From: an uncultured Chloroflexia bacterium
GTDB taxonomy: Bacteria > Chloroflexota > Limnocylindria > Limnocylindrales > CSP1-4
Length of the DNA stretch: 64,000 bases
Assembly (NCBI GenBank): GCA_963703155.1
Contig: OY969796.1
Coordinates: forward strand, 3,766,325 to 3,830,324
Direction of reading: 5' to 3'
Below are positions 45,908 to 62,321 of the stretch, one piece after another. How positions within the stretch are numbered: the stretch's first letter is position 1; the number at the start of each line of letters is the position of its first letter. The notes below the pieces were generated by a model. That model was not told the DNA's origin. It did not search any database and saw only the letters and a program-made list of their open reading frames with translations. Both the position numbers and the translations under genes were made by a program.

Positions 45908-47372
45908 GGCTCGCCGCCGCGCCCACCAGCGTCCGTCCGATCGCCTCGGGGACCTCTGCCGCCGATGGCCCGTGCGGCCGGCCGTCCTCCAGCCGTCGCC
46001 CGCGGACCCACGCCGCGCGGACCATGTCCGGATGCTGCCGGAAGATCAGCCGGCCGATCAGCTCCTCGGGCTCGTCGGCCTCGGCTCCGGGCACGGGCAT
46101 CGTGAACTGCGGGTCAACGGCGACCATGTCGGCCTCCTTGCCGGGTTCCAGCGAGCCCACCCGTTCGTCGATCCCGAGCGCCCGGGCGCCTTCGATCGTC
46201 CCGAGCGCCAGCCAGTCCAGCGGTGACATCGGCGAGATCCGCGAGATCGGCGCCAGGGCCGTCGTCGAGTCGGCGTCGGCCGTCGCGCGCAGCAGCCCGT
46301 GCGTGTACGCACCCGCGCGCATGACCGAGAAGAGCGAGAGCGTGGGGCCTCCCGCAACGTCCGAGCCGAGCCCGACGACCAGACCCGCGGCCCGATACCG
46401 CGACAGCGGCATCGCCCCGCTCCCGAGGAAGAGGTTCGACTCCGGGCAGTGCGCGATGACCGTCCCCGTCTCGGCCAACCTGCCGATCTCGCGCGCGGAG
46501 AGGTGGATGGCGTGGGCCATGATCGTCCGCGCCCCGAGACCACCGGCCCGGTCGTAGACGTCAACGTAGTCGCGCGCGGCGGGGAACAGCCTCGCCACCT
46601 CGGCGAGCTCGTCCCGGTCCTCGGAGAGGTGCGTCTGCCAGTAGGCGCCCGTCGCCCGGGCCAGCACGGCAGACTCCCGGAGCAGCTCGGCGGTGCAGCT
46701 CACCGCGAAGCGCGGCGTGAAGGCGTACGAGAGCCGCCCGTCGTCACGCCCGTGCCACCGCTCGCACAGCTCGGCCGACTCGCGGAGCTCCACCTCGAGA
46801 CGCTGTTCCGGGGGTGTGTCACGGTAGGAGATCCGATCCATCATCACCCGACCCGCGACGAGCCGGATGCCATGCGCCTCCGCCGCCCGGAACGTCTCGT
46901 GCAGGCTCGGGGCCCACGCCGCGCCGTAGAGCACGACGGTGGTGGTCCCGAGCGCGGCCATGCGCTGGAAGGCGAGCGGCGCGAGGCTCGCCGCCGCCGG
47001 CCCGTCGAAGGTGCGCTCGAGCGGATAGATGTACCGCCCGAGCCACTCGAGCAGGTGGAGGCCCGCCCCGAGGCCCGCGTTGGGCAGCTGCGGCAGATGG
47101 GCGTGCAGGTCGATGAGTCCGGGGAGCAGGGCGAGCGGCCGGATGTCGACCACGCTCAGCCTCGGCTCCGGGCCCTGCTCGCGGGCCGCCTCCCAAGCCT
47201 CGTGGTCGGTGACCTCGGCGATCCGTCCGGCCGCGTCCACAGCGATGACGCCATCCGGGAGGAAGCGCGTGCCTCCCTCCCCGAGAGGAGTCACGATCCG
47301 TGCCCGGACCACGAATGGCCCGCGCCGCGGCAGGGCATCGAGTGCCCCGACCGCCTGTCGGTCGTCGGTCAC
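45900..47372 (-). CDS. guaD: guanine deaminase (amidohydrolase family)
   Basis: PGLIDLHAHLPQ motif plus the HxxE (HLSE), HA/HCP and D motifs. The start is uncertain; GTG 47372 was chosen. Confidence 0.7.
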   Translation of the reverse strand: MTDDRQAVGALDALPRRGPFVVRARIVTPLGEGGTRFLPDGVIAVDAAGRIAEVTDHEAWEAAREQGPEPRLSVVDIRPLALLPGLIDLHAHLPQLPNAGLGAGLHLLEWLGRYIYPLERTFDGPAAASLAPLAFQRMAALGTTTVVLYGAAWAPSLHETFRAAEAHGIRLVAGRVMMDRISYRDTPPEQRLEVELRESAELCERWHGRDDGRLSYAFTPRFAVSCTAELLRESAVLARATGAYWQTHLSEDRDELAEVARLFPAARDYVDVYDRAGGLGARTIMAHAIHLSAREIGRLAETGTVIAHCPESNLFLGSGAMPLSRYRAAGLVVGLGSDVAGGPTLSLFSVMRAGAYTHGLLRATADADSTTALAPISRISPMSPLDWLALGTIEGARALGIDERVGSLEPGKEADMVAVDPQFTMPVPGAEADEPEELIGRLIFRQHPDMVRAAWVRGRRLEDGRPHGPSAAEVPEAIGRTLVGAAASHG

Positions 47373-47500
47373 GCCGCGATGATGCGACGAGCGCCCCGGG
47401 GGCGGCGAGGGCCGAACCTCCCGCAGGCGGAGGCCCGGGTTGACGCCCCGACGAACACTCCGTGCCGTCATGATGGGGATCGAGCCGGTGCGAGCAAGGA

Positions 47501-47986
47501 GTGGTCGTGAAGACAATGGCGGGCATCCTCCCGTGGGCCGTCGTCCTGGCGGCGGCGGGGGGCGCGATCTGGTGGATGCTGTCGATGGACATGGCCGCGG
47601 GGCGGTGGCTGTTGGCCGCCGTGCTCATCGGTCACGGCGTGGTGCACCTCATGTTCGCGGTGCCTGCGCCGACGGCGACCGCGAACGGTCCCGCCTGGCC
47701 GTTCGACATGGCACGCTCGCGGGTCGTCCGGGTCGGCGTGAACCTCACCTTCGTCCGCGCCGTCGGGGTGGCCCTGATCGCCGTGGTCGTCGGCGGCTTC
47801 GCGATTGCCGCCCTGTCGACGGTCGGCATCCTGGTGCCAGCCGGCTGGTGGCAGGCGAGCGTTGCGCTCTCGGCCGTCGCATCCGCGATCCTGCTGCTCC
47901 TGTTCTTCGAGCCGCAGCTCGTGCTCGGCCCCGGGATCGACGCCGTCCTCGTCGCGGCCGTTGCCACCGGGGCGTGGGCTCCCTGA
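47501..47986 (+). CDS. hypothetical membrane protein
   Basis: 161 aa with 4-5 TM helices. Confidence 0.5.
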   Translation: MVVKTMAGILPWAVVLAAAGGAIWWMLSMDMAAGRWLLAAVLIGHGVVHLMFAVPAPTATANGPAWPFDMARSRVVRVGVNLTFVRAVGVALIAVVVGGFAIAALSTVGILVPAGWWQASVALSAVASAILLLLFFEPQLVLGPGIDAVLVAAVATGAWAP

Positions 47987-48153: not shown

Positions 48154-48948
48154 ACGTCCATCACCGGCGAGCCGCTCGCCATCCCATCGATCCCCAACCT
48201 GCGCGATGTCGGCGGGTGCCCTACCCGCTCCGACCGGCGCGTCCGCTCCGGTCTCCTCTACCGGTCGTCTGGTCTCGCCGACATCGACGATTCAGACATC
48301 GCCGCGCTCGCTGGGCTGGGCATCCGGACGGTGTACGACCTGCGCATGGCCCAAGAGCAGGCATCGGCGCCCGATCGGCTCCCGCCAAGGACGCGGCACC
48401 TGCCCGTGGACGTCCTGGCCGGCTGGATGGAAGGTGGCCCGAGGCGGCTGTTCGTGTGGATGGAGGACGCGGCGGCCGCCCGCGCTGGCCTGGGCGACGG
48501 GGGTGCGGAGGCCCTCTGGACTGAGCAGTACCGCGCCTTCGTTCGACTTCCGAGCGCCCAGGCCGGGTATGGCGCGTTGTTCCGGGACCTTGCGATCGGG
48601 GGGCATCGGCCGGCGCTCGTGCACTGCGCCACCGGCAAGGACCGCACAGGCTGGGCCGCGGCCGCGCTGCAGCTCCTGCTGCACGTGCCTGAGGCCGCCG
48701 TGATGGCCCATTTCCTCGAGAGCCGACAGCACCTCGGGCCCCTGGTGGCGTCGATGCTCAACGCCATCAGCGCGCGGGGCGGCGACCCCGAGTTGTTCGC
48801 TCCCATCATGGACGTCCGCCCTGACTACCTCGAGGCCGCGCTCGATGAGGTACGGCACGGGTACGGGACGATCGAGCGCTACTTCAGCCATGGCCTGCAT
48901 GTCGATGGGGCCACGCAGGAGGCCCTGCGCATCGCCTTCACGGAGTGA
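48154..48948 (+). CDS. tyrosine-protein phosphatase family (PF13350-like) protein with an atypical start: ACG at 48154, 6 nt after GGAGGAG
   Basis: HCATGKDRTG is a CX5R P-loop. The conserved N-terminal IPNLRDVGG...YRSS lies in frame upstream of the first canonical start (GTG 48331), and no ATG/GTG/TTG is found back to the in-frame stop at 48058. Confidence 0.6.
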   Translation, partial: TSITGEPLAIPSIPNLRDVGGCPTRSDRRVRSGLLYRSSGLADIDDSDIAALAGLGIRTVYDLRMAQEQASAPDRLPPRTRHLPVDVLAGWMEGGPRRLFVWMEDAAAARAGLGDGGAEALWTEQYRAFVRLPSAQAGYGALFRDLAIGGHRPALVHCATGKDRTGWAAAALQLLLHVPEAAVMAHFLESRQHLGPLVASMLNAISARGGDPELFAPIMDVRPDYLEAALDEVRHGYGTIERYFSHGLHVDGATQEALRIAFTE

Positions 48949-49111
48949 TCTTGGCCGCGCGATGAGGCAGCCGCGATGGCCCCGACCGCGCGACCGGGCA
49001 ATGCCCATGACCCTGCTGGCCGGCGCCGACCCAGGGCGCTCGTCCCCGTTGACCAATTCCGCCGCTCTGTATACTCTATCCTCGATAATCGATGATTACT
49101 GGAGGACGACG

Positions 49112-49897
49112 ATGGCGGAGCTCGACAGGTTCAGGCTCGACGGCCGCGTCGCCCTCATCTCAGGTGGTGGCGGGGCCATCGGTTCGGCGATCGGGGCGGC
49201 GCTTGCGTGCGTCGGTGCCACGGTCGTGGTCGTGGATCGGACGAGCGAGCGTGCCGAGGAAGCAGCCGCTCGCGCGTGTGCCCTCGGCGGCGTGTGCATG
49301 GGCGTGACCGCGGACGTGACGATCGAGGCGGACGCCGAGCGGATCGTGCAGGAGACGCTCGACGCCCACGGCCGTCTGGACATCGTCGTCAACGCGGTTG
49401 GCGGCGGCGCTGGCCGCGTCCTGTTCGACGCCGAGGTGTACCCGCGCGACGCCTGGGACTGGATCTACGAGTTGAACGTCCGCAGCACCCTCGTGGCGAC
49501 CCAGCCGGCCGTGCGCGCGATGATCGCCGGCGGCCGCGGCGGCCGCGTCGTGAACATCTCGTCGGTGCGCGCCGCGCTGGGCATCAATGCGGGGTATTCG
49601 GCGTATGTCGCCGCGAAGGGCGCGATCAGCTCGCTGACCCGCCAGTGGGCGACCGAGTGGGCGAAACACGGCATCACCGTCAACGCCATCGCGCCCACGT
49701 TCGTGGACACCCCCCAGGTCGCGATGCTGCTGGACGACCCCGCGTTCAAGGCCAGCATCGTGAACAGGATCCCGATCGGCCGCGTGGGCGGGACCGATGA
49801 CCTCACCGGGGCCGTGCTGTTCTTCTGCTCGGACGCGGCATCGTTCGTGACGGGCCAGATCCTCGGCATCGACGGCGGCCTCACCGCGACCCAGTGA
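49112..49897 (+). CDS. SDR family oxidoreductase
   Basis: GGGGAIG Rossmann motif and the YxxxK catalytic pair (YVAAK). RBS GGAGGA. Confidence 0.8.
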   Translation: MAELDRFRLDGRVALISGGGGAIGSAIGAALACVGATVVVVDRTSERAEEAAARACALGGVCMGVTADVTIEADAERIVQETLDAHGRLDIVVNAVGGGAGRVLFDAEVYPRDAWDWIYELNVRSTLVATQPAVRAMIAGGRGGRVVNISSVRAALGINAGYSAYVAAKGAISSLTRQWATEWAKHGITVNAIAPTFVDTPQVAMLLDDPAFKASIVNRIPIGRVGGTDDLTGAVLFFCSDAASFVTGQILGIDGGLTATQ

Positions 49898-49919
49898 CAG
49901 GATCGGAGACGCGAAGGCG

Positions 49920-50879
49920 ATGAACCAGGCGACCGCGTTCAGGATGGAATCAGTCACGCCCAACGTGTTCACCCACACGAGGCTGCGCGGCTGCAACCCC
50001 AGCTTCGTGGTGACCTCGGACGGCGTCGTCGTCATCGACACGCCGCAGCTGCCGACGAAGGCCGTGGCCATGCGCAGGCTCGCCGAGTCGCACGGCCCAA
50101 TTCGGTACCTGATCAACACCGAGCACCACGTCGACCACATCTTTGGCAATTACTACTTCCGGGGCGCCGGCGCGGTGGTCAACCACCAGGAGCTGTACGA
50201 CCGGTTCATGGTGGTCTTCCCGGAGCTCGACCCCTTCGCCTACGCCTATAAATCGCTGCCCGGGACCAATCCCAAGGGCACCGACCTCGATGACCCGGAG
50301 GCCCTTGCCCTGTGGCCGGACCGGGATGCGTACTACTGCGACCCGAACAAGGGCACGATCGTGTTCACCGGCGACCTGACGCTGCACGTCGGCGACCACA
50401 CATTCAACCTGCTCCACACGCCCGGCCACACCCCCGGTCAGCTCGCCGTCCATGTCCCCGAGGAGCGGGTGGTGTTCACCGGCGACACGATCTTCTCGGG
50501 CTGCCAGACCTGGCTCATGACCTCCGACGTGGACCAGTGGCTCGTTGCGCTGGAGCGCATCGGGACCCTGGACGTGGACTGGATCTGCCCGGGCCACGGG
50601 CCGGTCGTGTCCAAGTCGTACCTCGATGTCCAGCGCGCCCACCTCCTGGACTGGAAGGCGGCCGTTGCGGACGCGATCGCCAAGGGCTGGTCACGGGAGG
50701 AGACGATCGCCCGCGTCAACTTCGTGGGCGTGTTCGGTCCCGTCGACATCGGCCAGGGGTACATGCTGGACTACATCCAGTCCCGCAACGCGGCAGCGCT
50801 CTACGACAAGCTGACGGGGAGCACGCCGCAGCTGACGGCCCCTGACGACACCGCGGCGCAGGCGGTCGCCGCCCGCTGA
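49920..50879 (+). CDS. MBL-fold metallo-hydrolase
   Basis: HHVDH (HxHxDH) motif plus downstream His residues. 319 aa. Confidence 0.75.
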   Translation: MNQATAFRMESVTPNVFTHTRLRGCNPSFVVTSDGVVVIDTPQLPTKAVAMRRLAESHGPIRYLINTEHHVDHIFGNYYFRGAGAVVNHQELYDRFMVVFPELDPFAYAYKSLPGTNPKGTDLDDPEALALWPDRDAYYCDPNKGTIVFTGDLTLHVGDHTFNLLHTPGHTPGQLAVHVPEERVVFTGDTIFSGCQTWLMTSDVDQWLVALERIGTLDVDWICPGHGPVVSKSYLDVQRAHLLDWKAAVADAIAKGWSREETIARVNFVGVFGPVDIGQGYMLDYIQSRNAAALYDKLTGSTPQLTAPDDTAAQAVAAR

Positions 50880-50905: not shown

Positions 50906-51534
50906 GGAGTCCGCCCCGTGCCCGAGACCATGCAGGCGCTCGTCGTGGTCGAGCCCAACCGCCTCGAGGTCCGCGAGGTGCCCGTGCCCGTGCCCGGGCC
51001 CAACGAGGTCCTCGCCCGCGTGCGCGCGGTGTCCATCTGCGGCACCGACGCCCACCTCGTCCGGGGCGACTACCCGGGCTTCTGGCCGCCCTCGTTCCCG
51101 TTCACCCCGGGCCACGAGTGGGCGGGCGAGGTGGCCGCCCTGGGCCCCGGCGCCGAGCGCTTCGGCTGGCGGGTGGGGGACCGGGTCGCGGGCACCAGCC
51201 ACGACGCCTGCGGCGTGTGCCAGAAGTGCGTCGAGGGCCGCTACAACCTGTGCGAGAACTACGGCCGGGCGGGGCTCCACCGGCAGTACGGCCACAGCGT
51301 CCAGGGCGCGGACGCCGAGTACGTCGTCCACGGGGTGAAGTCCGTGTTCCCGCTGCCCGACGCGCTCTCGTTCGACGACGGCGCGCTCGTCGACCCGGCC
51401 TCGATCGCGCTCCACGTCGCCAACCGCGGCGGCGTCGCCCCGGGCGACGCGGTGGCCGTCACCGGCGCCGGGGCCATCGGCCTGCTCGGCGGCGACGCCG
51501 CGCGGGTCCGGGGGGCGGCGCGCGTGATCGTCGT
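50906..51534. repeat. inverted repeat arm A (about 629 bp, apparently identical to 55548-56177 on the opposite strand), beginning at the RBS of the ADH gene
   Basis: All three reading-frame translations are identical between the two copies. Identity decays to roughly 85% protein identity beyond 51534. Confidence 0.75.
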
Positions 51535-51973
51535 GGGGAGAGGATCCCGGCTGGCGAAGGCGGCGGCCCTCGGGTTCGAGGTGGTGGACACCGCCGCCGG
51601 CGACCCGGTGGGGGCCGTCCGGGCCATGACCGGCGGCTTCGGCGTGGACGTCGTGCTCGAGTGCGCGGGGGTGCCCGCCACCGTTGAGTGGGGGCTCGAG
51701 ATGCTCCGGCGCGGCGGGCGCTGCGCGGCCGTGGGCATCCCCACCGTGGGCGTCGAGATCGCGATGCAGCGGCTCGTGCTCGACGAGATCGAGCTCGTCG
51801 GCTCGCGCGCCTCGGCGGGCGAGATGCGGCGCGTCATGCCCCTCGTGGAGCAGGGCCGGATGCGCGTGCGGGAGATGATCACGCATCGGTTCCCGCTCGC
51901 CGACTATGCGGAGGCGCTCGCCACGTTCAACGACCGCTCGAGCGGGGCCATCAAGATCATCATCGAGCCGTAG
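50918..51973 (+). CDS. zinc-dependent alcohol dehydrogenase (MDR family), copy 1
   Basis: GHEWAGEV, structural zinc Cys cluster CGVCQKC, and GAGAIG Rossmann motif. Confidence 0.8.
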   Translation: MPETMQALVVVEPNRLEVREVPVPVPGPNEVLARVRAVSICGTDAHLVRGDYPGFWPPSFPFTPGHEWAGEVAALGPGAERFGWRVGDRVAGTSHDACGVCQKCVEGRYNLCENYGRAGLHRQYGHSVQGADAEYVVHGVKSVFPLPDALSFDDGALVDPASIALHVANRGGVAPGDAVAVTGAGAIGLLGGDAARVRGAARVIVVGRGSRLAKAAALGFEVVDTAAGDPVGAVRAMTGGFGVDVVLECAGVPATVEWGLEMLRRGGRCAAVGIPTVGVEIAMQRLVLDEIELVGSRASAGEMRRVMPLVEQGRMRVREMITHRFPLADYAEALATFNDRSSGAIKIIIEP

Positions 51974-52021
51974 CGCAGAGTCGCGCGCGCCCATCCGCGG
52001 CGTGCTCGCCCGCGACGGTGC

Positions 52022-52867
52022 CTAGCCAGTCAGGTCCGCGAGGCCGAGGGTGAAGCCGCCGTCGACATCGATCGCCGCCCCGGTCACGAAGCGGCCGCCC
52101 GGCCCGCAGAGCCACGCGATCGCCTCCGCGACGTCGCGGCCGTCGCCAACCGTCGAGAGCGCCTGCCGCCCGAAGTTGGCCCCGGTCTCGAACCGCGCCC
52201 GCTCGTCGCCCTCGGCCAGGCCACGCAGCTCGCTCGGGATGATCCCCGGCCGGATCACGTTGACGCGGATGCCATCGCGCCCAAGGTCCACCGCCAGCGC
52301 CCGGGTCATCGCCTCCACCGCGCCCTTCGCGGACACGTAGCCGAACCGACCGCGCGGCGGCCGCGTCACCGCGGTCGAACCCAGGTTGATGACGACGCCG
52401 CGGTTCCGGCGGAGCTCCTCGAGGGCGGCGCGGGTGCACAGGAACACGCTGAGGACGTTGGCCCGCCACATGCCCTCGAGATCGGCCTCCGACAGCCGCT
52501 CGATCGGTCCCTGGACCTCGCTGCCCGCGTTGTTCACGAGGACGTCGATCCCGCCGAGGGCATCGACCGCGGTGGCGGCCATCGCCCGCACCCCGGCATC
52601 GTCGGTGACGTCGGCCACGACCGGGACGACGCGGCCGGGGAGGTCCGCCAGTTCGCTGGCGAGCCGATCGAGACGGTCGCCTCGGCGGGCGACGGCGACG
52701 ACATGCGCGCCCATCGCGGCCAGGTGCCGCACCATGTGCGCCCCGAGGCCGCTCGAGGCACCCGTCACGATGACCCGGCGCCCGGCGAGCGAGTGCGCCG
52801 GCGCGCCGGCGGGTGTGACGAAGTCGGCGGCCACGACCTTTCCCCCCGGTCCGGGTGCGCCCATCAC
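52022..52867 (-). CDS. SDR family oxidoreductase
   Basis: TGASSGLG Rossmann motif, NNAG, and YxxxK (YVSAK). Confidence 0.8.
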   Translation of the reverse strand: MMGAPGPGGKVVAADFVTPAGAPAHSLAGRRVIVTGASSGLGAHMVRHLAAMGAHVVAVARRGDRLDRLASELADLPGRVVPVVADVTDDAGVRAMAATAVDALGGIDVLVNNAGSEVQGPIERLSEADLEGMWRANVLSVFLCTRAALEELRRNRGVVINLGSTAVTRPPRGRFGYVSAKGAVEAMTRALAVDLGRDGIRVNVIRPGIIPSELRGLAEGDERARFETGANFGRQALSTVGDGRDVAEAIAWLCGPGGRFVTGAAIDVDGGFTLGLADLTG

Positions 52868-55041
52868 GCCCGCCCGGCAGCGGTCTCCGCAGCACGGCTG
52901 CGGCCGGCCAGCTGGATCAGGTCCTCGTGCAACTCGAACCAGATGCCGTGGTAGCTGTCCACGCGCGGCGAGGCGACATAGCGCTGGTCGCCCGCCTGGG
53001 CGGCAGCATTCGCCCGATCAAGGCGCTCCCGATACGCGGTGAGACGCGCGGGGGCCGACACCAGCGCGTCGAGCCAGGCCAGCGCGTCGAGGTGCAGCGC
53101 GGCGAGGTCGGCCAGGACCGCCGTGTCGTAGGCGGCATCCGAGTGGTCGTTGAACGCCTGGGCGCCCTCGACCTCCCGCATCTGCCAGGCCGTGACGGTT
53201 GACTTCATGCGGTGGTCCAGCGCGAGGAACGCGTCAAGCGCCCCCTCGGCGTTGGCGAGCCCCCACAGCTCCGTCTCCTCGGCGATCCGCTCCTTCGCGA
53301 TCGCCTTGCCGTCCGCGGTGAGCCGAAAGGATCCTGCGGCCATCTCCGCGAGCCCGTTCGCGACGAGCCCGTCGAGCACCGCGCTCGCCTCCTCGGACGA
53401 CACGAGGAGGGCTGTCCCCAGTCCTTCAGGGGTGGCGTAGCCCTTGACCGCGAGGACGCGGAGCCCGTCGTCGGCAGAGATGGCGCGCGGGCCCGCAGCG
53501 AACGGGCCCGCAGCGAACGGGACCGCCGGTGCGGCCGGGGCGCCAGATGCAGCCGAGGGGACCGTCTCCGGTCCTGGGGCGATCGGGATCCCGAGCCCCG
53601 CTGCCCAGGCTGCAAGCGTCGCCGCCTCCGGGACCACCGCGGCCGTGCCGGTCGCGGCTCCCGCGAAGACCTCGCCCGTGGTGCCGTCGATCGTGATGGT
53701 GTCCCCTGCCGACAAGAGACGGTCGCCAATCACCACCGATCCATCGCCAACCACGATGCTTGCGGCGCCGACCACCGCCGGGATGCCCCACCCACGGGCG
53801 ACCACGGCCGCGTGGCTTGCGAGCCCGCCCGTGGACGTCAGGACCCCGGCGGCACGGGCCATGCCGTGGACGTCATCCGGGGACGTCTCCGCACGGACCA
53901 GGATCACCGTCCGGCCGGCCTCCGCCGCCGCGACCGCGGCCTCCGGGGACGTCACGATCTCGCCGCACGCCACGCCGGGCGACGCCGCCAGGCCGGTCGC
54001 GATCGCGGGACCGACGTCGCCGCGCTCGGTGACCTCCGTCGGCGGATCGGCCAGGATCGACTGGACGCGCCGCACGGCCTCGGCCCTGGTCACCGGGAAG
54101 TCGGGATCCTCGGCCATGTCGCGCGCGATCCGGAGGGCGGCGTGGGGGCTGCGCTTGCCGACGCGGCACTGGAGCATCCACAGGCGCCCATGCTCGATCG
54201 TGAACTCGATGTCGCAGAGGTCGGCGTGATGGTGTTCCAGGCGTGCGGCGTAGTCGCGCAACTGCCGCCCCACCTCGGGAATCCGCTCGTCCAGCACCGA
54301 GATGGGCTCCGTCCGGTGCGTGCCGGCGACCACGTCCTCGCCCTGGGCGTTGAACATCACGTCGCCGTAGAGGACCGGCTCGCCGGTGGCCGGGTTGCGC
54401 GTGAACAGCACGCCCGTCCCCGAATCCACGCTTCGGTTCCCGAAGACCATCGCTTGAACCGTCACGGCCGTGCCCAGATCGTCGGGGATCCCCTCCCGCT
54501 CGCGATACGCCCGCGCCCGGTCGCCGTTCCAGGACCGGAACACGGCCTCGGTGGCGGCACGCAGCTGCTGCCACGGGTCCGCCGGCACGACCTCCGAGCC
54601 GACGATATCGCGGTACATCGTCTCGAAGCGGGACCTGCAGTTGGCCGCGAACTTGGGGCTCGAGGTGCGGGCGGCGAGGCCCGCCATGGTCGCGTCGTTG
54701 AGCCCGAGGTTGAGGATCGTGTCCATCATGCCGGGCATGGACACGGGGGCCCCGGACCGGACGCTCACGAGGAGCGGGTTGTCCGGATCGGCGAACCGCT
54801 GCCCCACTCCCTCCTCGATGTGCCCCATGTGGGCGCGCATCTCCGCATCGAGGCCCTCGGGCCAGCCGTGGGCGAGGTACTCGTTGCAGGCTTCCGTGGA
54901 CACGGTGAAGGCTGGCGGAACTGGGAGGTTCAGTTCAGCCGCCATCACGGTGAGGTTCGCAGCCTTGCCACCAACCAGGCGCTTGACCTCTTCGAATGTC
55001 AGGCCGTCGAACGGGTGGTCGCAGTCGAAGACGTAGGTCAC
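52864..55041 (-). CDS. PPDK/PEP-synthase-like phosphotransferase: N-terminal nucleotide-binding (ATP-grasp) domain plus phosphohistidine swivel domain, with a non-canonical ~230-aa helical C-terminal domain instead of a PEP/pyruvate TIM barrel
   Basis: PPDK_N-like N-terminus (GGKAANL...). His domain GGLASHAAVVARGWGIPAVVG. The linker has a tandem repeat VPFAAGPFAAGP. The C-terminus shows no PEP-utilisers signature. Confidence 0.65.
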   Translation of the reverse strand: MTYVFDCDHPFDGLTFEEVKRLVGGKAANLTVMAAELNLPVPPAFTVSTEACNEYLAHGWPEGLDAEMRAHMGHIEEGVGQRFADPDNPLLVSVRSGAPVSMPGMMDTILNLGLNDATMAGLAARTSSPKFAANCRSRFETMYRDIVGSEVVPADPWQQLRAATEAVFRSWNGDRARAYREREGIPDDLGTAVTVQAMVFGNRSVDSGTGVLFTRNPATGEPVLYGDVMFNAQGEDVVAGTHRTEPISVLDERIPEVGRQLRDYAARLEHHHADLCDIEFTIEHGRLWMLQCRVGKRSPHAALRIARDMAEDPDFPVTRAEAVRRVQSILADPPTEVTERGDVGPAIATGLAASPGVACGEIVTSPEAAVAAAEAGRTVILVRAETSPDDVHGMARAAGVLTSTGGLASHAAVVARGWGIPAVVGAASIVVGDGSVVIGDRLLSAGDTITIDGTTGEVFAGAATGTAAVVPEAATLAAWAAGLGIPIAPGPETVPSAASGAPAAPAVPFAAGPFAAGPRAISADDGLRVLAVKGYATPEGLGTALLVSSEEASAVLDGLVANGLAEMAAGSFRLTADGKAIAKERIAEETELWGLANAEGALDAFLALDHRMKSTVTAWQMREVEGAQAFNDHSDAAYDTAVLADLAALHLDALAWLDALVSAPARLTAYRERLDRANAAAQAGDQRYVASPRVDSYHGIWFELHEDLIQLAGRSRAAETAAGRA

Positions 55042-55106
55042 GGGTTCAGGCTCCAGGGATCCGAGGCGCGGTCACGAACCTGCGGACGAGCATCAGCGGC
55101 CACGCC

Positions 55107-56165
55107 TCACGGCCGGACGATGATCTTGATGGCCCCGCTCTTGGGGTCGTTGAAGGTGTCGAGGGCCTGCTGGTACTCGGCCAGCGGGAACTCGTGGGTC
55201 ATGACATCCCGCACGCGCATCCGGCCCTGCTCCACGAGGGGCATGACGCGCCGCATCTCGCCCGCCGAGGCGCGCGAGCCGACGAGCTCGATCTCGTCGA
55301 GCACGAGCCGCTGCATCGCGATCTCGACGCCCACGGTGGGGATGCCCACGGCCGCGCAGCGCCCGCCGCGCCGGAGCATGGCCAGTGCCCACTGCACGGT
55401 CACCGGCACCCCCGCGCACTCGAGCACGACGTCAACGCCGAAGCCGCCGGTCATCTCGCGCACGGTCGCGGCGGGATCTCCGACGCTCGAGTCAACCGTC
55501 TCAAACCCCATCTCGGCGGCCTTGGCGAGCCGCAGCGGGTTGCGCTCGACGACGATCACGCGCGCCGCCCCCCGGACCCGCGCGGCGTCGCCGCCGAGCA
55601 GGCCGATGGCCCCGGCGCCGGTGACGGCCACCGCGTCGCCCGGGGCGACGCCGCCGCGGTTGGCGACGTGGAGCGCGATCGAGGCCGGGTCGACGAGCGC
55701 GCCGTCGTCGAACGAGAGCGCGTCGGGCAGCGGGAACACGGACTTCACCCCGTGGACGACGTACTCGGCGTCCGCGCCCTGGACGCTGTGGCCGTACTGC
55801 CGGTGGAGCCCCGCCCGGCCGTAGTTCTCGCACAGGTTGTAGCGGCCCTCGACGCACTTCTGGCACACGCCGCAGGCGTCGTGGCTGGTGCCCGCGACCC
55901 GGTCCCCCACCCGCCAGCCGAAGCGCTCGGCGCCGGGGCCCAGGGCGGCCACCTCGCCCGCCCACTCGTGGCCCGGGGTGAACGGGAACGAGGGCGGCCA
56001 GAAGCCCGGGTAGTCGCCCCGGACGAGGTGGGCGTCGGTGCCGCAGATGGACACCGCGCGCACGCGGGCGAGGACCTCGTTGGGCCCGGGCACGGGCACG
56101 GGCACCTCGCGGACCTCGAGGCGGTTGGGCTCGACCACGACGAGCGCCTGCATGGTCTCGGGCAC
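55107..56165 (-). CDS. zinc-dependent alcohol dehydrogenase (MDR family), copy 2; paralog of 50918-51973
   Basis: The first ~214 aa are identical to copy 1. The remainder is about 85% identical. Confidence 0.8.
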   Translation of the reverse strand: MPETMQALVVVEPNRLEVREVPVPVPGPNEVLARVRAVSICGTDAHLVRGDYPGFWPPSFPFTPGHEWAGEVAALGPGAERFGWRVGDRVAGTSHDACGVCQKCVEGRYNLCENYGRAGLHRQYGHSVQGADAEYVVHGVKSVFPLPDALSFDDGALVDPASIALHVANRGGVAPGDAVAVTGAGAIGLLGGDAARVRGAARVIVVERNPLRLAKAAEMGFETVDSSVGDPAATVREMTGGFGVDVVLECAGVPVTVQWALAMLRRGGRCAAVGIPTVGVEIAMQRLVLDEIELVGSRASAGEMRRVMPLVEQGRMRVRDVMTHEFPLAEYQQALDTFNDPKSGAIKIIVRP

Positions 56166-56177
56166 GGGGCGGACTCC
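55548..56177. repeat. inverted repeat arm B (partner of 50906-51534)
   Basis: See arm A. Confidence 0.75.
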
Positions 56178-56187
56178 CTGGGACGCG

Positions 56188-57075
56188 TCAGATGACGGCG
56201 ACGGGATCGACCATCGATCCAGTGGCGCCGCGGATCTTCACTGGGAGGGCCACGAACAGGAACTCGTACACCCGCTGGCGGGCGAGCTCCTCCAGATCGA
56301 GGCTCTCCATGAGGTAGATGCCGTTGTCGATCAACAGCAGCGTGTGCACGGGCTGAGGGTTGCCGGTCGGCCCGGGATCGGGAGCCGGCTGGACCTCGTA
56401 GGTCTCGGTGTCGGTTCCCGTGGCGACCACTCCCCGATCGAGGAGCCAGCGGGCCGCCGAGATGTCCGGCCCGGGCGTCTTGTGCGCCGCCATCCGCTCG
56501 GCGTCGGGCCACAGGGACATGTACCCGGTCCGGATCACGACCACGTCCCAGGGGCGCACCTCGACGGCCTGGGCTGCGCAGATGGCATCCATCTCCGCGG
56601 CATCGATCGGCGAGCCGTGCGGCAGGCACTCGACCCCGCGGTGGCCGGCCGCGTCGAGCAGCACGCCGCGCGTGAAGAACGGGGGCAGGGCGGAGGCATC
56701 GAGATGCGTCGGGCCGAAATCGCTCAAGTGGTCGTCGGCCCGCCCGCCGCCATGCCAGCGCATGTCCTCGCCGATGGTCATGTGCGCCAGCGCGTCGATG
56801 TGGGCGCCGGAGTGCGAGGTGGCCATGACGTACTCGGCCATGTAGCCGAGGCCAACGTCGTTGACCGGACCCCAGGGCTTGGCGCCGACAACCCGGATGC
56901 CCCGCGGCGTGCGGTAGTTCAGCACCTGGAACGGCGGGTGCCCCGGGAACAGCGGCATCCCAGGGAACCGCGCCGCCGCGAGCGAGATCGTCCTGCCTTC
57001 GCGGACCAGGCCCGCGGCGCGGACGATCTGCTCCGGGGGCAGCGATGCAATCGGACCGATGTCGAAAGCGGTCAT
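56188..57075 (-). CDS. cyclase family protein (kynurenine formamidase-like)
   Basis: HSGAHIDALAH motif. The ATG overlaps the upstream stop (ATGA). Confidence 0.75.
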   Translation of the reverse strand: MTAFDIGPIASLPPEQIVRAAGLVREGRTISLAAARFPGMPLFPGHPPFQVLNYRTPRGIRVVGAKPWGPVNDVGLGYMAEYVMATSHSGAHIDALAHMTIGEDMRWHGGGRADDHLSDFGPTHLDASALPPFFTRGVLLDAAGHRGVECLPHGSPIDAAEMDAICAAQAVEVRPWDVVVIRTGYMSLWPDAERMAAHKTPGPDISAARWLLDRGVVATGTDTETYEVQPAPDPGPTGNPQPVHTLLLIDNGIYLMESLDLEELARQRVYEFLFVALPVKIRGATGSMVDPVAVI

Positions 57076-59336
57076 GACCCGTGCTCCTCGCGCTCGTTGG
57101 CTGGCCGGTCGCGCAGCGCCCGCCAGACGCGCTCTGGCGTCAGCGGCAGGTCTCGGACGACCACGCCGGTCGCCTCCCGGACGGCGGCCGCGACGGCCGG
57201 CGCCACGCACAGGAGCGCCCCCTCGCTCATGCCCTTGGCACCGTAGGGGCCCGGGCCGTCGCCGTTCTCCACCATGTCGCTGATCAACTCGAGCGGCAGG
57301 TCCATGCTGGTGGGGATCCGGTAGTCGATGGCGCCGAGGTTCCGGATTCGCCCGGCGTCGTCAAAGATGTACTGCTCCATCAGGGTGTGGCCGAGGCCCT
57401 GGATGGCGGCCCCCTCGTCCTGCGTCCGGACCTGGAGCGGGTTGATCGCCTTCCCCACATCGGACACGGTCACGTGGCGCACCACCGTCACGTCGCCGGT
57501 GCCCTCGTCGACCGCCGCCTCGATCGCGGTGCAGTTGAACTCGAAGAACGCGGGTGCGCCGCCGAGCGGGTGGTCCGGATCCGCGTCCTTGCGCATCTCG
57601 CCGTTGCCAACCAGCTCGCCGCCCAGCCGGCCCAGCCCGGGTCCGAGCAGGTCCCGGATCGAGAGGTCGCGGTCGGGCAGCGAGACGACGCCCCGGTCCA
57701 CGCGGATCAAGGCCTCGTCGAGGCCGTGGACGCGAGCCGCCATCGCCCGCAGCTTGCCTTGGATCTCGCGGCACGCCGCCAACACGGAGTTGCCCATCAG
57801 GACGGTGGACCGGCTCGCCGAGGTCTGCTGGTCGTACGGCACCACGGCCGTGTCGCCCATGATCACCGTGACCCAGTCCAGCGGGGCCCCGAGCTCCTGA
57901 CCGGCGATCTGGGCCAGCACGGTCCGCGCTCCCTGGCCCATGTCGGACGTGCCGGCGTAGACGACAACGCTGCCGTCGGCGAGCAGCCGGACGGTCGAGT
58001 AGGACAGCCCGGTCGTCGGCCCCGACTTGATCCCAACGGCGATGCCGCGCCCGTGTCCGGGCGGCCTGGGCGTGTCCCAGCCGATGAGCGCGGCAGCCCG
58101 CCGAACCACCTCTGCCCAGTCCCCGTCGGCGGGCGTGTCCCAAGGGATGAACGCCTCGCCCGGCCGGGCCAGGTTCCGCAGCCGGATCTCCAGGCGGTCC
58201 AGGCCCAGGATCAACGCGGCCTCGTCCAGGTTGGACTCCACCGCCCAGTTCACCTGCGGGTTGCCGAAGCCGCGCATCGCCGTCGACGGCACGGTATGGG
58301 ACAGGATCGGGCGGGCGACGATCCGGGCAGCCGGCATCCGGTACGGGCCAGCGCCCAGGTAGCTCCCCTTGCCCACCACCCGGTCGGCGATGTCGACGTA
58401 GGCGCCGATGAGATAGTCCGCCTCGATGTCCTGGAAGCAGATCGTCCCGTCGGCTCGGAGGCCGGTCCGGACGTGCACGTCGGACGCGGCGCGGCGGACC
58501 GCCTGGAACGTCTCCTCGAGCGTCAGCACCAGGCGGACCGGCCGCCCCGCCCGCAGCGCCATGAGCGCAACCAGCGGCTCGTACTTCGCGTGCTGCTTGC
58601 CACCGAAACCGCCGCCCGGGTCCGGGGCGACGACGCGGACCTTCGCGAGGGGCAGGCCGGTGATCTCGGCCAGAATCCGCTGCAGCCAGTTGGGGTGCTG
58701 GACCGTGCTCCACATCACCAGGCCGTCCCCGTCGGGGGCGGCGATGTAAGCGTGCGGCTCGATGGCGAACTGGGTGATGATCGGGAACGTGTAGCGGTGG
58801 TCCACGACCAGGTCGGCGGGCGTCGCGTCGACATCCCCCCAGCCCACCCGGTGCTCGCGCAGGATGTTGGATCCCGAGAGGGGATCCTTCGGCCGCCGCG
58901 ACGGGTCCTGGACCAGCGGTGCGGCGGGGGCGAGGGCACCGGCGATCGTCGTGACCGCGGGCAGCTCCTCGAAGGTCACGCGGACGAGCGCCGCAGCCTC
59001 CTGCGCCGCGTCCTTCGTCTCGGCTGCCACGATGGCCACCGGCTCGCCGTGGTACTTGACCTCGTCGACGGCCAGCACCGGGCGATCCCGGTACTGCGGT
59101 CCGAAGCGGGGGACGGGCTGCGGGAGGTCCGCGGCTGTCAGCACCAGCCGGACGCCAGGAACGCGCAGCGCCTCGCTCGTGTCGATCGCGACGATCCGGG
59201 CGTGGGCGCAGTCGATGGTCACCAGCTTCGCGTGCAGCTCGCCCGCGAGGTGGACGTCCGCGACGTACTCCTGGGCGCCCGTGACGCGATCGATCCCGCC
59301 TACCCGGTTGGGAGATGCCCCCACGCGCGCGGTCAT
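57072..59336 (-). CDS. xanthine dehydrogenase/CoxL-family molybdopterin-binding large subunit
   Basis: About 754 aa. N-terminus VGGIDRVTGAQEYVADV and GGGFGGKQ. Stop/start overlaps with the neighbouring genes. Confidence 0.8.
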   Translation of the reverse strand: MTARVGASPNRVGGIDRVTGAQEYVADVHLAGELHAKLVTIDCAHARIVAIDTSEALRVPGVRLVLTAADLPQPVPRFGPQYRDRPVLAVDEVKYHGEPVAIVAAETKDAAQEAAALVRVTFEELPAVTTIAGALAPAAPLVQDPSRRPKDPLSGSNILREHRVGWGDVDATPADLVVDHRYTFPIITQFAIEPHAYIAAPDGDGLVMWSTVQHPNWLQRILAEITGLPLAKVRVVAPDPGGGFGGKQHAKYEPLVALMALRAGRPVRLVLTLEETFQAVRRAASDVHVRTGLRADGTICFQDIEADYLIGAYVDIADRVVGKGSYLGAGPYRMPAARIVARPILSHTVPSTAMRGFGNPQVNWAVESNLDEAALILGLDRLEIRLRNLARPGEAFIPWDTPADGDWAEVVRRAAALIGWDTPRPPGHGRGIAVGIKSGPTTGLSYSTVRLLADGSVVVYAGTSDMGQGARTVLAQIAGQELGAPLDWVTVIMGDTAVVPYDQQTSASRSTVLMGNSVLAACREIQGKLRAMAARVHGLDEALIRVDRGVVSLPDRDLSIRDLLGPGLGRLGGELVGNGEMRKDADPDHPLGGAPAFFEFNCTAIEAAVDEGTGDVTVVRHVTVSDVGKAINPLQVRTQDEGAAIQGLGHTLMEQYIFDDAGRIRNLGAIDYRIPTSMDLPLELISDMVENGDGPGPYGAKGMSEGALLCVAPAVAAAVREATGVVVRDLPLTPERVWRALRDRPANEREEHGS

Positions 59337-59809
59337 CGGCCGGTCTCCTCGGCCGTCGCGAGGACGGCCTCGCTGATCTGCGCGTACCCGGCGCAGCGGC
59401 ACAGGTTCCCGGCCAGGCCCTCCTGGACCTCGGCGAGCGTCGGGTGCGGCGTGCGGGCCAGCAGGTCGTGGGCCGCCATCAGCTGGCCGGGGATGCAGAA
59501 GCCGCACTGCGCGGCGCCATGGTCGAGGAATGCCTGCTGGAGGCGCGTCAGCGGCCCATTCTCCGCAAGTCCCTCCACCGTGGTGACGCTGCTGCCGTCG
59601 GCCTCGACGGCGAGCACGAGGCACGAATCCACGATGCGCCCGTCCAGGCTGACGGTGCAGGCACCGCACTCGCCGACCAGGCAGCACTCCTTGGTGCCGG
59701 TGAGGGCCAAATCGTCGCGCAGCACGTCCAGCAACGTGTGATGGGGCGCCACCCGGAGCGACCGCGGTCGGCCGTTGACGGTGATCGTGATGGACACGAG
59801 GTTCGGCAT
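59333..59809 (-). CDS. (2Fe-2S)-binding small subunit (CoxS-like)
   Basis: CLVGECGACTV, CGFCIPG and CRCAGY motifs. Confidence 0.8.
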   Translation of the reverse strand: MPNLVSITITVNGRPRSLRVAPHHTLLDVLRDDLALTGTKECCLVGECGACTVSLDGRIVDSCLVLAVEADGSSVTTVEGLAENGPLTRLQQAFLDHGAAQCGFCIPGQLMAAHDLLARTPHPTLAEVQEGLAGNLCRCAGYAQISEAVLATAEETGR

Positions 59810-59813
59810 CACG

Positions 59814-60677
59814 TCACTCCCCAGCCGCCAGGCGACCAATCGCCGTGCGGATCGCGCGCTCACCCAGCACCCGGAGCATCGCGAGCCGGTACTCGGGACT
59901 CGCCCGCATGGAGCGCGGCGACGGGCTGGCATCGGCGAACATCCGCTCCAGGACGGCAGCCATCGCCTCCCGCGGCGCTGCCGGGTTCGCGAGGACGCCG
60001 CTGTCGTCCACGCCGAGCACGGGCCGGGGGCCGACGCTCCCATAGGCCAGGCGGGTCACGCCGGCCCGATCCACCGTGCAGGCGAGCGTCACCGAGGCCA
60101 GATCGTGGCCCCGCCGGCGGGTGCGGCGCACGTGGGTTGCGCCGAGGGGTCCGGCGCGCAGCGGGATCTCGACGGCGGTCACGAGTTCGCCCCGCCGGAG
60201 CGTGGTGACGCCCGACCGGACGAAGAAGCGGTCGATCGGGATCCGGCGCACGCCGTCGGGGCCCACCGCGATCACCTCGGCCCCGTACACGAGGAGCGAG
60301 GGCGCGGTGTCGGCCGCCGGCGATGCATTGCAGATGTTGCCCACCAGCGTCGCCCGGTTCCGAACCTGCACCGAGCCGACGACCTCGGCTGCCTCGGCAA
60401 GCGCGGTCAGGTGCGTGCGCACCCGCGAGTCGGCGGCGACGTCGGTCATGACCACCGTCGCGGGGATCACGAGACGGCCATCGGCCTCCCGGATCACTGG
60501 CTCCAATGCTGCGATCCGCTTGACGTCGACGACGACGCTCGGCGTGGCTGACCCGTCACGCAGCCGGATCACGAGGTCCGTGCCACCGGCGAGGACGCGG
60601 GCGTCAGGCCCGCGTTCCGCCAGGATGGCGACGGCCTCGGCGATCGTCGTCGGCCGGGCGTAGGAGAACGTGCGCAT
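59814..60677 (-). CDS. FAD-binding subunit (CoxM/XdhB-like molybdopterin dehydrogenase FAD domain)
   Basis: LAGGTDL and TLVGNICNASPAAD motifs. 287 aa. Confidence 0.8.
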   Translation of the reverse strand: MRTFSYARPTTIAEAVAILAERGPDARVLAGGTDLVIRLRDGSATPSVVVDVKRIAALEPVIREADGRLVIPATVVMTDVAADSRVRTHLTALAEAAEVVGSVQVRNRATLVGNICNASPAADTAPSLLVYGAEVIAVGPDGVRRIPIDRFFVRSGVTTLRRGELVTAVEIPLRAGPLGATHVRRTRRRGHDLASVTLACTVDRAGVTRLAYGSVGPRPVLGVDDSGVLANPAAPREAMAAVLERMFADASPSPRSMRASPEYRLAMLRVLGERAIRTAIGRLAAGE

Positions 60678-61613: not shown

Positions 61614-62321
61614 TCAGCTGGCCGGGAGGGCCTCTTCAAGATCGGTTGGGGCGCCGGGTGATCGAGTCTCCGCCCAGTGGCTGGCGAGCCCTGCGGCGGC
61701 ATCCTCGAAGTGCGAATGCATGACGGCGACGGCCTGGGCCGCGTCCCGGGCCCGCAACGCCCGGAGGATCGGAATGTGCTGGTCGGCGATCCACCGGCGG
61801 TCAGCGCCGGGCGCCACGATGGTGATGTACGTGCGCGAGAACGGCTCGAGGGTGCGCCAGACTCGCGCGAGCGTCGCGTTGCCGGCGGCCTCGACGATGC
61901 GTCCGTGGAACGCGGCATCTGCCGTCGCCTCGGCATAGGTGTCACCCGATTCGGCTGCCGCGCGCATCTGGTCGACATAGGTGGCGAGCTCGTCGAGGTC
62001 CTCGTCGCTGAGACTCGGGATGGCGAGCTGCGCGGCGAGCGACTCGAGCGTGGACCGGACGGCAAATCCCTCGAGGAGCTCGTCCGCCGACGGGCGACGG
62101 ACGCGAGCTCCCCGAAATGCGGTTGTCTCCACGACCCCCAGGCCCTCGAGGTCGCGCAGCGCCTCCCGGACGGGCGCCTGGCTCGTGCCGAGTTCCCGGG
62201 CAACCCGGGTCTCGACGATCCGGGCGCCCGGCGGATAGCGACCGTCGAGGATCCCCTGGAGCAGGCGATCCTTGACCTGTGCGCTCAGGACGCTGCGCGC
62301 GATCGCGGCCTGGGGAATCAT
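61614..62321 (-). CDS. GntR family transcriptional regulator (FCD effector domain)
   Basis: HTH ...IVETRVARELGTSQAPVREAL plus a helical FCD-like C-terminus. Confidence 0.75.
   Translation of the reverse strand: MIPQAAIARSVLSAQVKDRLLQGILDGRYPPGARIVETRVARELGTSQAPVREALRDLEGLGVVETTAFRGARVRRPSADELLEGFAVRSTLESLAAQLAIPSLSDEDLDELATYVDQMRAAAESGDTYAEATADAAFHGRIVEAAGNATLARVWRTLEPFSRTYITIVAPGADRRWIADQHIPILRALRARDAAQAVAVMHSHFEDAAAGLASHWAETRSPGAPTDLEEALPAS

Follow-up and report, generated by a model that had tools for sequence, protein, structure and literature searches.

A barrel-less pyruvate, phosphate dikinase-like protein carrying an undescribed C-terminal domain: a very probable VadK-Rv1126c fusion and possible phosphohistidine donor of a multi-component dikinase

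The 64-kb stretch of DNA analysed here (the window; ~72% G+C), taken from contig OY969796.1 of an uncultured Chloroflexia bacterium, carries on its minus strand, at 52864..55041, a gene for a protein that begins like pyruvate, phosphate dikinase (PPDK) and ends in a C-terminal domain (CTD) unrelated to that enzyme. On the basis of its open reading frame (ORF) and of domain searches we describe this gene, the target, as a VadK-like truncated PPDK fused to an Rv1126c-like CTD, and we consider below that its product might serve as the phosphohistidine donor of a small-molecule dikinase assembled from several components. The architecture itself is common and belongs to a recently recognised type that comprises truncated PPDK/VadK proteins and multi-component dikinases; the CTD has no description in any of the sources searched. 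The worth of the case lies in the fusions, which assign a partner domain to VadK-type kinases, connect these kinases to HpeH-type dikinases and Mo-hydroxylases, and bring probable systematic mis-annotation to light. All coordinates, except those given with the handle of another locus, are those of the window and refer to its minus strand unless marked (+).

The target gene and its PPDK-derived module

The target ORF runs uninterrupted over 725 codons from a GTG start. The ATP-grasp nucleotide-binding domain (aa 1 to ~340; 54022..55041) matches PPDK_N in Pfam with E 2e-45 and keeps the ATP-site motifs of 1ggo, with GGK, SVRSGA..SMPGMMDT, NAQGEDVVAG and LQ.R.GKR all intact. It is followed by the swivel phosphohistidine domain (aa ~345-465; 53647..54009), recognised by motif search and by a Pfam match to the phosphoenolpyruvate (PEP)-utilizers mobile domain (PF00391) at aa 379-456 with E 2.5e-22. 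The catalytic motif GGLASH is intact, and the codon of its catalytic His410 lies at 53812-53814 within the motif TSTGGLASHAAVVARG. Read from the sequence, the regulatory Thr that is phosphorylated by PDRP in true PPDKs is Ala408 in the target. The linker that leads into the CTD (aa 466-520; 53482..53646) begins, by profile match and alignment, as a PPDK-like helix (up to aa ~483) and continues as a low-complexity spacer rich in Pro and Ala, which differs in length and sequence among homologues; the target-family profile matches PPDK residues 467-531, i.e. the linker helix of PPDK has been retained.

The best PDB sequence matches of the target are PPDKs, for example 1ggo and 1kbl with E ~1e-117, and these alignments cover only aa 19-480 of the target, equivalent to PPDK residues 14-527. 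A full-length Streptomyces PPDK aligns over aa 1-462 with 44% identity, and the N-terminal 480 aa as a whole are ~44-48% identical to genuine PPDKs. Compared with canonical PPDK (EC 2.7.9.1; Clostridium symbiosum 1KBL), the target shares the first ~480 residues, among them the nucleotide site, the motif of the catalytic His and the two linkers of the swivel, whereas the TIM barrel is replaced by an unrelated domain made of a winged helix and a helical part, and the regulatory Thr is absent.

This likeness, together with the name "pyruvate, phosphate dikinase" that both the NCBIfam model NF004531 and the JGI annotation bestow, would suit a genuine PPDK or PEP synthase with a pyruvate/PEP domain that is either degenerate or encoded elsewhere, yet that explanation is effectively refuted. 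Pfam gives no match to PEP-utilizers_C (PF02896) in the target even at E<=1, the predicted structure of the C-terminal part is confidently alpha-helical with a winged helix and is not a barrel, and a tblastn search of the 64-kb window with the Streptomyces PPDK barrel returned no barrel-like sequence (best E 0.34 over 16 aa), on which ground a separately encoded barrel within the window was rejected. The target also scores below the equivalog cut-offs for PPDK (TIGR01828; 516.1 bits, cut-off 843.45) and for PEP synthase (TIGR01418; 89.5 bits, cut-off 739.75), while the truncated-PPDK model NF004531 (534 positions) matches aa 18-471 with 497.9 bits at a cut-off of 456. For the truncated type in Mycobacterium tuberculosis, 13C flux analysis is reported to have found no PPDK flux (cited in PMC13400623).

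The initial annotation of this gene, which gave its coordinates correctly and left the strand unstated, had proposed the order ATP-grasp, His-swivel and unknown helical domain (put at ~230 aa), and this order is borne out by Pfam, by the PDB alignments and by AlphaFold2, with a CTD of 205 aa. It was likewise right that the PEP/pyruvate barrel is missing and that the protein is neither PPDK/PpsA nor rifampin phosphotransferase (Rph), the Rph model NF041857 giving 47.6 bits at a cut-off of 999.

The C-terminal domain

The CTD consists of an acidic winged helix (aa 521-576; 53314..53481), defined by AlphaFold2 secondary structure and Foldseek, and of a helical bundle with a beta-hairpin (aa 577-725; 52867..53313), defined by alignment and by a predicted local distance difference test score (pLDDT) above 90. 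The AlphaFold2 model of all 205 residues (aa 521-725) has a mean pLDDT of 96.1 and a predicted template modelling score of 0.91; in it the winged helix (domain aa 1-55) is followed by the bundle with its single beta-hairpin, and there is no barrel. When the model was searched with Foldseek, only the winged helix aligned. Its matches, at E>=0.013, are IdeR, MntR, MarR and the dimerisation domains of O-methyltransferases (65-90 columns; 62-92 for the MarR, IdeR and MntR matches), and no fold similarity of the CTD to a small-molecule-binding domain was found. Searches with fused and standalone CTDs gave no Pfam, NCBIfam or PDB match covering the helical part, the Pfam and NCBIfam matches being confined to weak ones scattered over the winged helix, and the CTD profile run against PDB sequences met only the PPDK linker and, weakly, the winged helices of IdeR, MntR and MarR. 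The MarR and MarR_2 profiles do not match the window protein; MarR_2 matches nine of 38 CTD members, in every case far under the gathering score (best E 5.7e-4), and a MarR/MarR_2-type profile matches one of 23 standalone members.

An alignment of 38 CTD homologues contains 35 invariant columns, nearly all of them in the second, helical half. The conserved motifs are TAWQ, NDHxD..YD, SPRVDSYH..WFELHED, GR.R..E and an invariant C-terminus ending in ..GRA, and this conservation avoids the putative recognition helix of the winged helix. The net charge of the winged helix lies between 0 and -7 (mean -3.3) and is positive in none of the 38 homologues; that of the helical part is -8 on average.

These observations bear on whether the protein could be a phosphorylation-controlled transcription factor, in which the winged helix would bind DNA and the PPDK module would act as a switch reading ATP or PEP status. 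Such a role would accord with the nearest structures of aa 521-576, which are the IdeR, MntR and MarR repressors, and with the MarR-family label that RefSeq and JGI give to several standalone homologues. We nevertheless judge it very unlikely. The similarity to these repressors is weak by both structure and profile, and the acidity of the winged helix, together with conservation that lies in the helical part and outside the putative recognition helix, argues against a DNA-binding role. In addition, the operon already holds a GntR/FCD regulator, and loss of vadK is reported to have left the transcription of methylcitrate-cycle genes unchanged in M. tuberculosis (PMC13400623). The CTD is probably not a regulator that binds DNA and probably not the only substrate site either, a point to which we return with the neighbouring genes, and its acidic winged helix is likely to be a protein-protein or dimerisation module.

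Fused, split and standalone forms

More than 1,247 proteins match the CTD at 90% clustering, and an exhaustive profile search gave at least 1,964 representatives at 50% identity, of which 504 reach E<=1e-30. They occur as fused proteins of ~700-780 aa and, in many cases, as chains of ~200-210 aa that stand alone. When one genome per species was scanned, at least 585 CTD loci were found, and the neighbourhood counts given in this report refer to the best 80 of these with flanks limited to 8 kb; the 80 loci are mainly from Chloroflexota (Limnocylindria), with some from Acidimicrobiia, Dormibacterota and Nocardia. Among the 76 related loci in which both halves lie near each other, 71 join them in a single reading frame, so that the fusion seen in the target cannot be put down to faulty assembly.

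On annotated plasmids the standalone CTD adjoins either a "pyruvate, phosphate dikinase" of the truncated type or a "PEP-utilizing enzyme" with a swivel domain, an arrangement found in Mycobacterium avium, M. branderi, Rhodococcus pyridinivorans, Streptomyces atratus, Diaphorobacter and Methylibium. The standalone CTDs on these plasmids bear the labels "MarR family transcriptional regulator", "transcriptional regulator" or "hypothetical protein", and NCBIfam NF004531 and JGI label the barrel-less proteins "pyruvate, phosphate dikinase". Both the dikinase and the MarR label are probably systematic mis-annotations, which matters in that truncated PPDKs bear the former name across thousands of genomes while their partners bear the latter. 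The initial annotation had called the domain novel, which holds insofar as we found no prior description of it, although the family is large and its standalone members are already in the databases under these MarR or hypothetical labels.

The same parts recur in other combinations. A 793-aa protein encoded on a Rhodococcus opacus B4 plasmid (L086, 9793-12174) has an N-terminal swivel, an unknown middle part of ~450 aa and a C-terminal CTD. In a fully split form, a plasmid of Methylibium petroleiphilum PM1 (L089, 4291-7180) encodes a standalone swivel of 149 aa and then a 190-aa CTD homologue annotated as MarR; this pair is preceded by two hypothetical proteins and lies beside genes for a cobalamin-dependent acyl-CoA mutase and MeaB. 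On four actinobacterial plasmids (L082, L084, L086 and L087) the module, here made up of a truncated PPDK, a CTD and a PEP-utilizing protein, is surrounded by cytochrome P450, ferredoxin, and aldehyde and alcohol dehydrogenase genes, and these clusters resemble the cre/hpe aromatic-catabolic clusters and not the molybdenum (Mo)-hydroxylase clusters described below.

Comparison with VadK and Rv1126c

VadK of M. tuberculosis (Rv1127c, long annotated as ppdK) is a truncated PPDK that the pathogen requires for virulence and that, given ATP/Mg2+, phosphorylates itself on His422 (PMC13400623). Co-expression with its operonic partner Rv1126c raised the solubility of VadK; the two co-purify tightly, and washes with 2 M NaCl were used to part the two proteins (PMC13400623, Methods); beyond these co-expression and purification Methods, Rv1126c is not discussed in that paper (PMC13400623). 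Proteins of 201 aa that match the target CTD from end to end (hhalign probability 100%, E 1.9e-48) are numerous in Mycobacterium chromosomes, and in other mycobacteria they are encoded directly downstream of a truncated PPDK. Rv1126c, at 201 aa, shares this length and this gene order. By annotation, synteny and length it is very probably a member of the CTD family, and the target is very probably a natural VadK-Rv1126c fusion.

Both the target and VadK have a PPDK-type ATP-grasp domain and swivel His without the PEP/pyruvate barrel, and both have Ala in place of the regulatory Thr; the N-terminal module of the target is only ~46-48% identical to mycobacterial plasmid homologues of the VadK type. 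They differ in that VadK and Rv1126c form a salt-resistant complex of two proteins (PMC13400623), whereas here the two are joined into a single 725-aa chain through the Pro/Ala-rich spacer. The vadK locus also lies in a prpDC/methylcitrate neighbourhood, while the target lies in an operon with a Mo-hydroxylase and an HpeH-like protein in a Chloroflexota-like genome. As a Rosetta-stone link, the fusion leads one to expect a single functional unit made of the truncated PPDK and the Rv1126c-like protein, and it thereby provides a testable hypothesis for the phospho-acceptor or partner of the virulence-essential VadK.

A putative Rph-type partner in the operon

The operon also encodes a 546-aa HpeH/CreH/PpsA/Rph-like protein, here called C2 (62330..63970), identified from NCBIfam and PDB matches. 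In NCBIfam, C2 corresponds to the last two-thirds of Rph, RedH, PigC and PRK08296-type proteins and is made up of an Rph-type substrate-binding region and a C-terminal swivel with the motif GGTVSH (His492); its PDB matches are restricted to the swivel at aa 418-533 and are to the Listeria rifampin phosphotransferase (5fbs/5hv1). Given the match to an Rph-type substrate-binding domain with a swivel, C2 represents the HpeH/CreH/PpsA-type component of two-component phenol dikinases. Compared with Rph, the target has no Rph-type substrate domain of its own, and such a domain sits instead in the neighbouring C2.

The two-component aromatic dikinases HpeHI, CreHI and PpsAB are a precedent for this chemistry (PMC12167813). 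They share with Rph and with the system described here an ATP-grasp domain, a swivel His and a substrate domain that is not a barrel, and the reaction common to them is the transfer of a phosphate of ATP to an aromatic hydroxyl. Their ATP-grasp subunits HpeI, CreI and PpsB, however, have neither a swivel nor an extra domain (PMC12167813), whereas the target carries its own swivel His and a CTD of ~200 aa. With one swivel on the target and another on C2, the system would contain two phosphohistidine carriers. Fusions of C2 to the whole target architecture (C2, PPDK ATP-grasp, swivel and CTD) exist in three metagenomic proteins of 1,230-1,256 aa (P0145, P0173 and P0205), each with two swivels per chain, and P0147 (1,049 aa) is another fusion of the same parts. 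Such fusions tie the unit of truncated PPDK and CTD to small-molecule dikinases of the HpeH/Rph type. C2 was found near the CTD in at least 30 of the 80 loci, a count that is a lower bound because in this arrangement C2 lies ~9 kb from the CTD and the flanks extend to 8 kb. Two other connections were examined and dropped: a descent of the CTD from the Rph/HpeH substrate-binding domain, where the hhalign alignment of CTD and C2 matches the swivel residues of some rows only, and a relationship to the aromatic kinase MarK (UPF0261), which is unrelated.

The presence of C2 has consequences for the substrate site. The initial annotation suggested that a small-molecule alcohol or antibiotic, and not pyruvate, is phosphorylated, and the protein can indeed be pictured as a self-contained dikinase in which the CTD, as substrate-binding or catalytic site, takes the place of the PPDK barrel and an alcohol or another small molecule is the acceptor. 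The CTD stands exactly at the position of the barrel, after the retained linker helix, and its helical part contains an invariant cluster of His, Arg, Asp and Tyr as expected of an active or phosphate-binding site; moreover, no HpeH-like partner is reported for the vadK-Rv1126c pair of M. tuberculosis (PMC13400623), and C2 was detected in only 30 of the 80 loci. We consider a self-contained dikinase possible but doubtful. Against it stand C2, an Rph-type protein dedicated to substrate binding that brings a swivel His of its own, belongs to the operon and is elsewhere fused to this very architecture, and the Foldseek results, in which the CTD resembles no small-molecule-binding domain. The CTD is also found fused to, or beside, other swivel proteins that have extra domains of their own, as would be expected of an adaptor more than of a fixed site for substrate. 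The general idea of an ATP-dependent phosphorylation of a small molecule, with pyruvate an unlikely acceptor, fits the context, but the CTD as substrate site on its own is probably wrong, and nothing supports the antibiotic-resistance role that had been suggested.

The Mo-hydroxylase and the Ensifer precedent

Three genes of the cluster encode the subunits of a Mo-hydroxylase: the FAD-binding (medium) subunit (59814..60677; PF00941, PF03450), the [2Fe-2S] (small) subunit (59333..59815; NCBIfam XdhC, HcrC and PucE-type models, E ~1e-50) and the molybdopterin-binding (large) subunit (57072..59330, with an approximate start, the ORF extending to 59687; PF01315, PF02738, PF20256). The large subunit scores under every equivalog cut-off. 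Genes for the iron-sulfur, FAD and large subunits lie within 8 kb of the CTD in 55, 54 and 48 of the 80 loci, respectively, and in most related loci the large-subunit gene is directly upstream of the homologue of the target.

In Ensifer adhaerens HP1 the four-component Mo-hydroxylase HpdA turns 3-hydroxypyridine into 2,5-dihydroxypyridine only when orf9 and orf10 are also present (bioRxiv 10.1101/2020.01.08.898148). The former is annotated as "pyruvate-phosphate dikinase" and the latter as "PEP-utilizing protein mobile subunit"; knock-out of either abolishes growth, and their roles were left open (bioRxiv 10.1101/2020.01.08.898148). Likened by annotation and gene order, the Ensifer 3hpd cluster and the window share the trio of a Mo-hydroxylase, a PPDK-like gene and a PEP-utilizing-type gene, with a GntR regulator nearby. 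The Ensifer enzyme has four components (HpdA1-4), whereas that of the window cluster has three subunits, and among the window ORFs scanned no separate SRPBCC subunit and no maleamate-pathway genes were seen. Searches of the plasmid collection gave no match from Ensifer. If the likeness holds, the system described here may explain why the Ensifer Mo-hydroxylase needs the "PPDK" and "PEP-utilizing" proteins.

The same precedent can be read in favour of a regulatory histidine kinase in the manner of VadK, that is, a phosphoprotein that controls the Mo-hydroxylase or the HpeH-like dikinase through protein interaction or protein phosphorylation. In the Ensifer work no phosphorylated intermediate was detected, only 2,5-dihydroxypyridine (bioRxiv 10.1101/2020.01.08.898148), methylcitrate synthase and dehydratase are reported as binding partners through which VadK tunes flux (PMC13400623), and the acidic winged helix and conserved tail of the CTD resemble interaction surfaces. 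However, the models of the VadK interactions are of low confidence by the authors' own figures (interface predicted template modelling scores of 0.36-0.41; PMC13400623), and the tight operon, together with the fusions that tie the target architecture to a substrate-binding protein of the Rph/HpeH type, speaks for chemistry on a small molecule. A purely regulatory role appears unlikely.

Proposed mechanism

We favour, at a probability of roughly 0.5, a reading of the sequence evidence in which the target would be the ATP-charged phosphohistidine donor of a multi-component small-molecule dikinase, with the CTD as its partner or phosphotransfer module. In a first step, the ATP-grasp domain would use ATP/Mg2+ to phosphorylate His410, as the conserved catalytic residues indicate and as has been shown for VadK and PPDK. 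The swivel, which keeps both PPDK-type linkers, would then take the phosphoryl group to a second site that is not a pyruvate barrel and that the tethered CTD would build from the acidic winged helix and the helical bundle, with its conserved C-terminal tail and an invariant pocket in which His, Arg, Asp and Tyr abound; this cluster and tail would suit phosphate handling or tight protein docking. Thirdly, to judge from homology, operon structure and gene fusions, the CTD may dock onto C2, or relay the phosphoryl group to it, and C2 would phosphorylate a hydroxylated aromatic or N-heteroaromatic compound. Finally, following the precedent of Ensifer adhaerens, this phosphorylation may be coupled to the adjacent three-subunit Mo-hydroxylase.

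Several points weigh against this proposal. The characterised two-component dikinases need no third protein and no swivel on their ATP-grasp subunit, which leaves the second swivel of the present system unaccounted for, and fewer than half of the loci have C2 in the flanks examined. VadK has been proposed to regulate methylcitrate-cycle enzymes by protein-protein interaction and not by small-molecule phosphorylation (PMC13400623). The equivalences drawn with Rv1126c and with Ensifer orf9 and orf10 rest on annotation, synteny and length, and the co-occurrence counts are phylogenetically biased because the 80 loci are the closest relatives, mostly from Chloroflexota.

A bolder version of the donor proposal, which is speculative and which we hold to be quite unlikely, would make the CTD a new phosphotransfer module. 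Through one of three His residues that are invariant across the family, it would serve as a relay of the HPt/HPr kind, or else as a docking site with a catalytic function, between the swivel His of the target and the swivel His of the HpeH-like protein, giving an ATP-driven phosphohistidine relay, similar to the phosphotransferase system, that activates substrates for Mo-hydroxylases or gates these enzymes. If this were true, Rv1126c would be the missing "third domain" and the immediate phospho-acceptor of VadK.

Other genes of the operon and the wider neighbourhood

The regulator that follows C2 is of the GntR/FCD type (61614..62320; PF00392, PF07729), with an approximate start, the ORF extending to 62783 and overlapping C2. 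Next comes C6 (60693..61511), a conserved protein of 272 aa that falls in no Pfam or NCBIfam family and is present in 37 of the 80 related loci. C6 homologues are usually 295 aa long, and C6 is 84-90% identical to more than 100 of them from Chloroflexota, far above the values for its neighbours; it contains a P-loop-like GGESNHGKS motif after a beta-hairpin. Its structural model reaches a pLDDT of only 55 because the homologues are too alike, and from this low-confidence model the top Foldseek matches, HprK/PEP carboxykinase, are non-significant; a PEP carboxykinase profile also matches weakly (E 0.2). C6 may be a kinase or phosphorylase in the same phosphotransfer system, and with the CTD it is one of two large undescribed protein families that this analysis flags. 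In Diaphorobacter and M. avium a "hypothetical" protein of ~300 aa with a WGFRD motif accompanies the PEP-utilizing gene; these proteins were considered as C6 homologues and rejected, as they have no homology to C6.

Between the large Mo-hydroxylase subunit and the target lie a putative cyclase/arylformamidase-like hydrolase (56188..57210; PF04199), whose ORF start is probably too far upstream, and, directly upstream of the target, a Zn-dependent alcohol dehydrogenase (ADH) (55107..56165; PF08240, PF00107). Downstream, a domain scan identified a short-chain dehydrogenase/reductase (SDR) (52022..52867), whose GTG start overlaps the TGA stop of the target (GTGA). The initial annotation was correct that the ADH and the SDR are co-oriented with the target, but the weight it gave them as context was misplaced: they are peripheral, many of the 80 related loci lack them, and the three-subunit Mo-hydroxylase is more widely conserved.

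A second, inverted ADH paralogue, recognised by sequence comparison, lies at 50918..51973 (+). The two Zn-ADH paralogues (50906-51998 (+) and 55082-56177) flank the target and the SDR, and over the first 629 nt, a stretch that takes in 12 nt ahead of the start, they are 100% identical, while the rest is ~83% identical. The same pair is found in two related loci (L004 and L061) with the first ~300 nt 99-100% identical, but is not so preserved in two others (L002 and L057). This pattern suggests recurrent gene conversion between the inverted paralogues, possibly with inversion of the intervening ~4-kb segment.

Beyond the cluster, at 42249-47516, is a second Mo-hydroxylase set, with a large subunit at 43640-45907 and a 493-aa ORF at 42249-43730 that clusters with FAD/FeS subunits; beside it is an amidohydrolase (45900-47516). 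With this second set and the amidohydrolase, the region looks like an N-heterocycle catabolic island. Convergent to the target, and downstream of it, are a gene of the metallo-beta-lactamase fold and an SDR gene (48845-50879 (+)), which are kept in about 35-42 of the 80 related loci. In other loci the homologue of the target is followed by a kinase of the phosphofructokinase family (L012, L017, L018, L023 and L031), or by a glucose-methanol-choline oxidoreductase together with an aldehyde dehydrogenase and a dihydrodipicolinate synthase-like protein.

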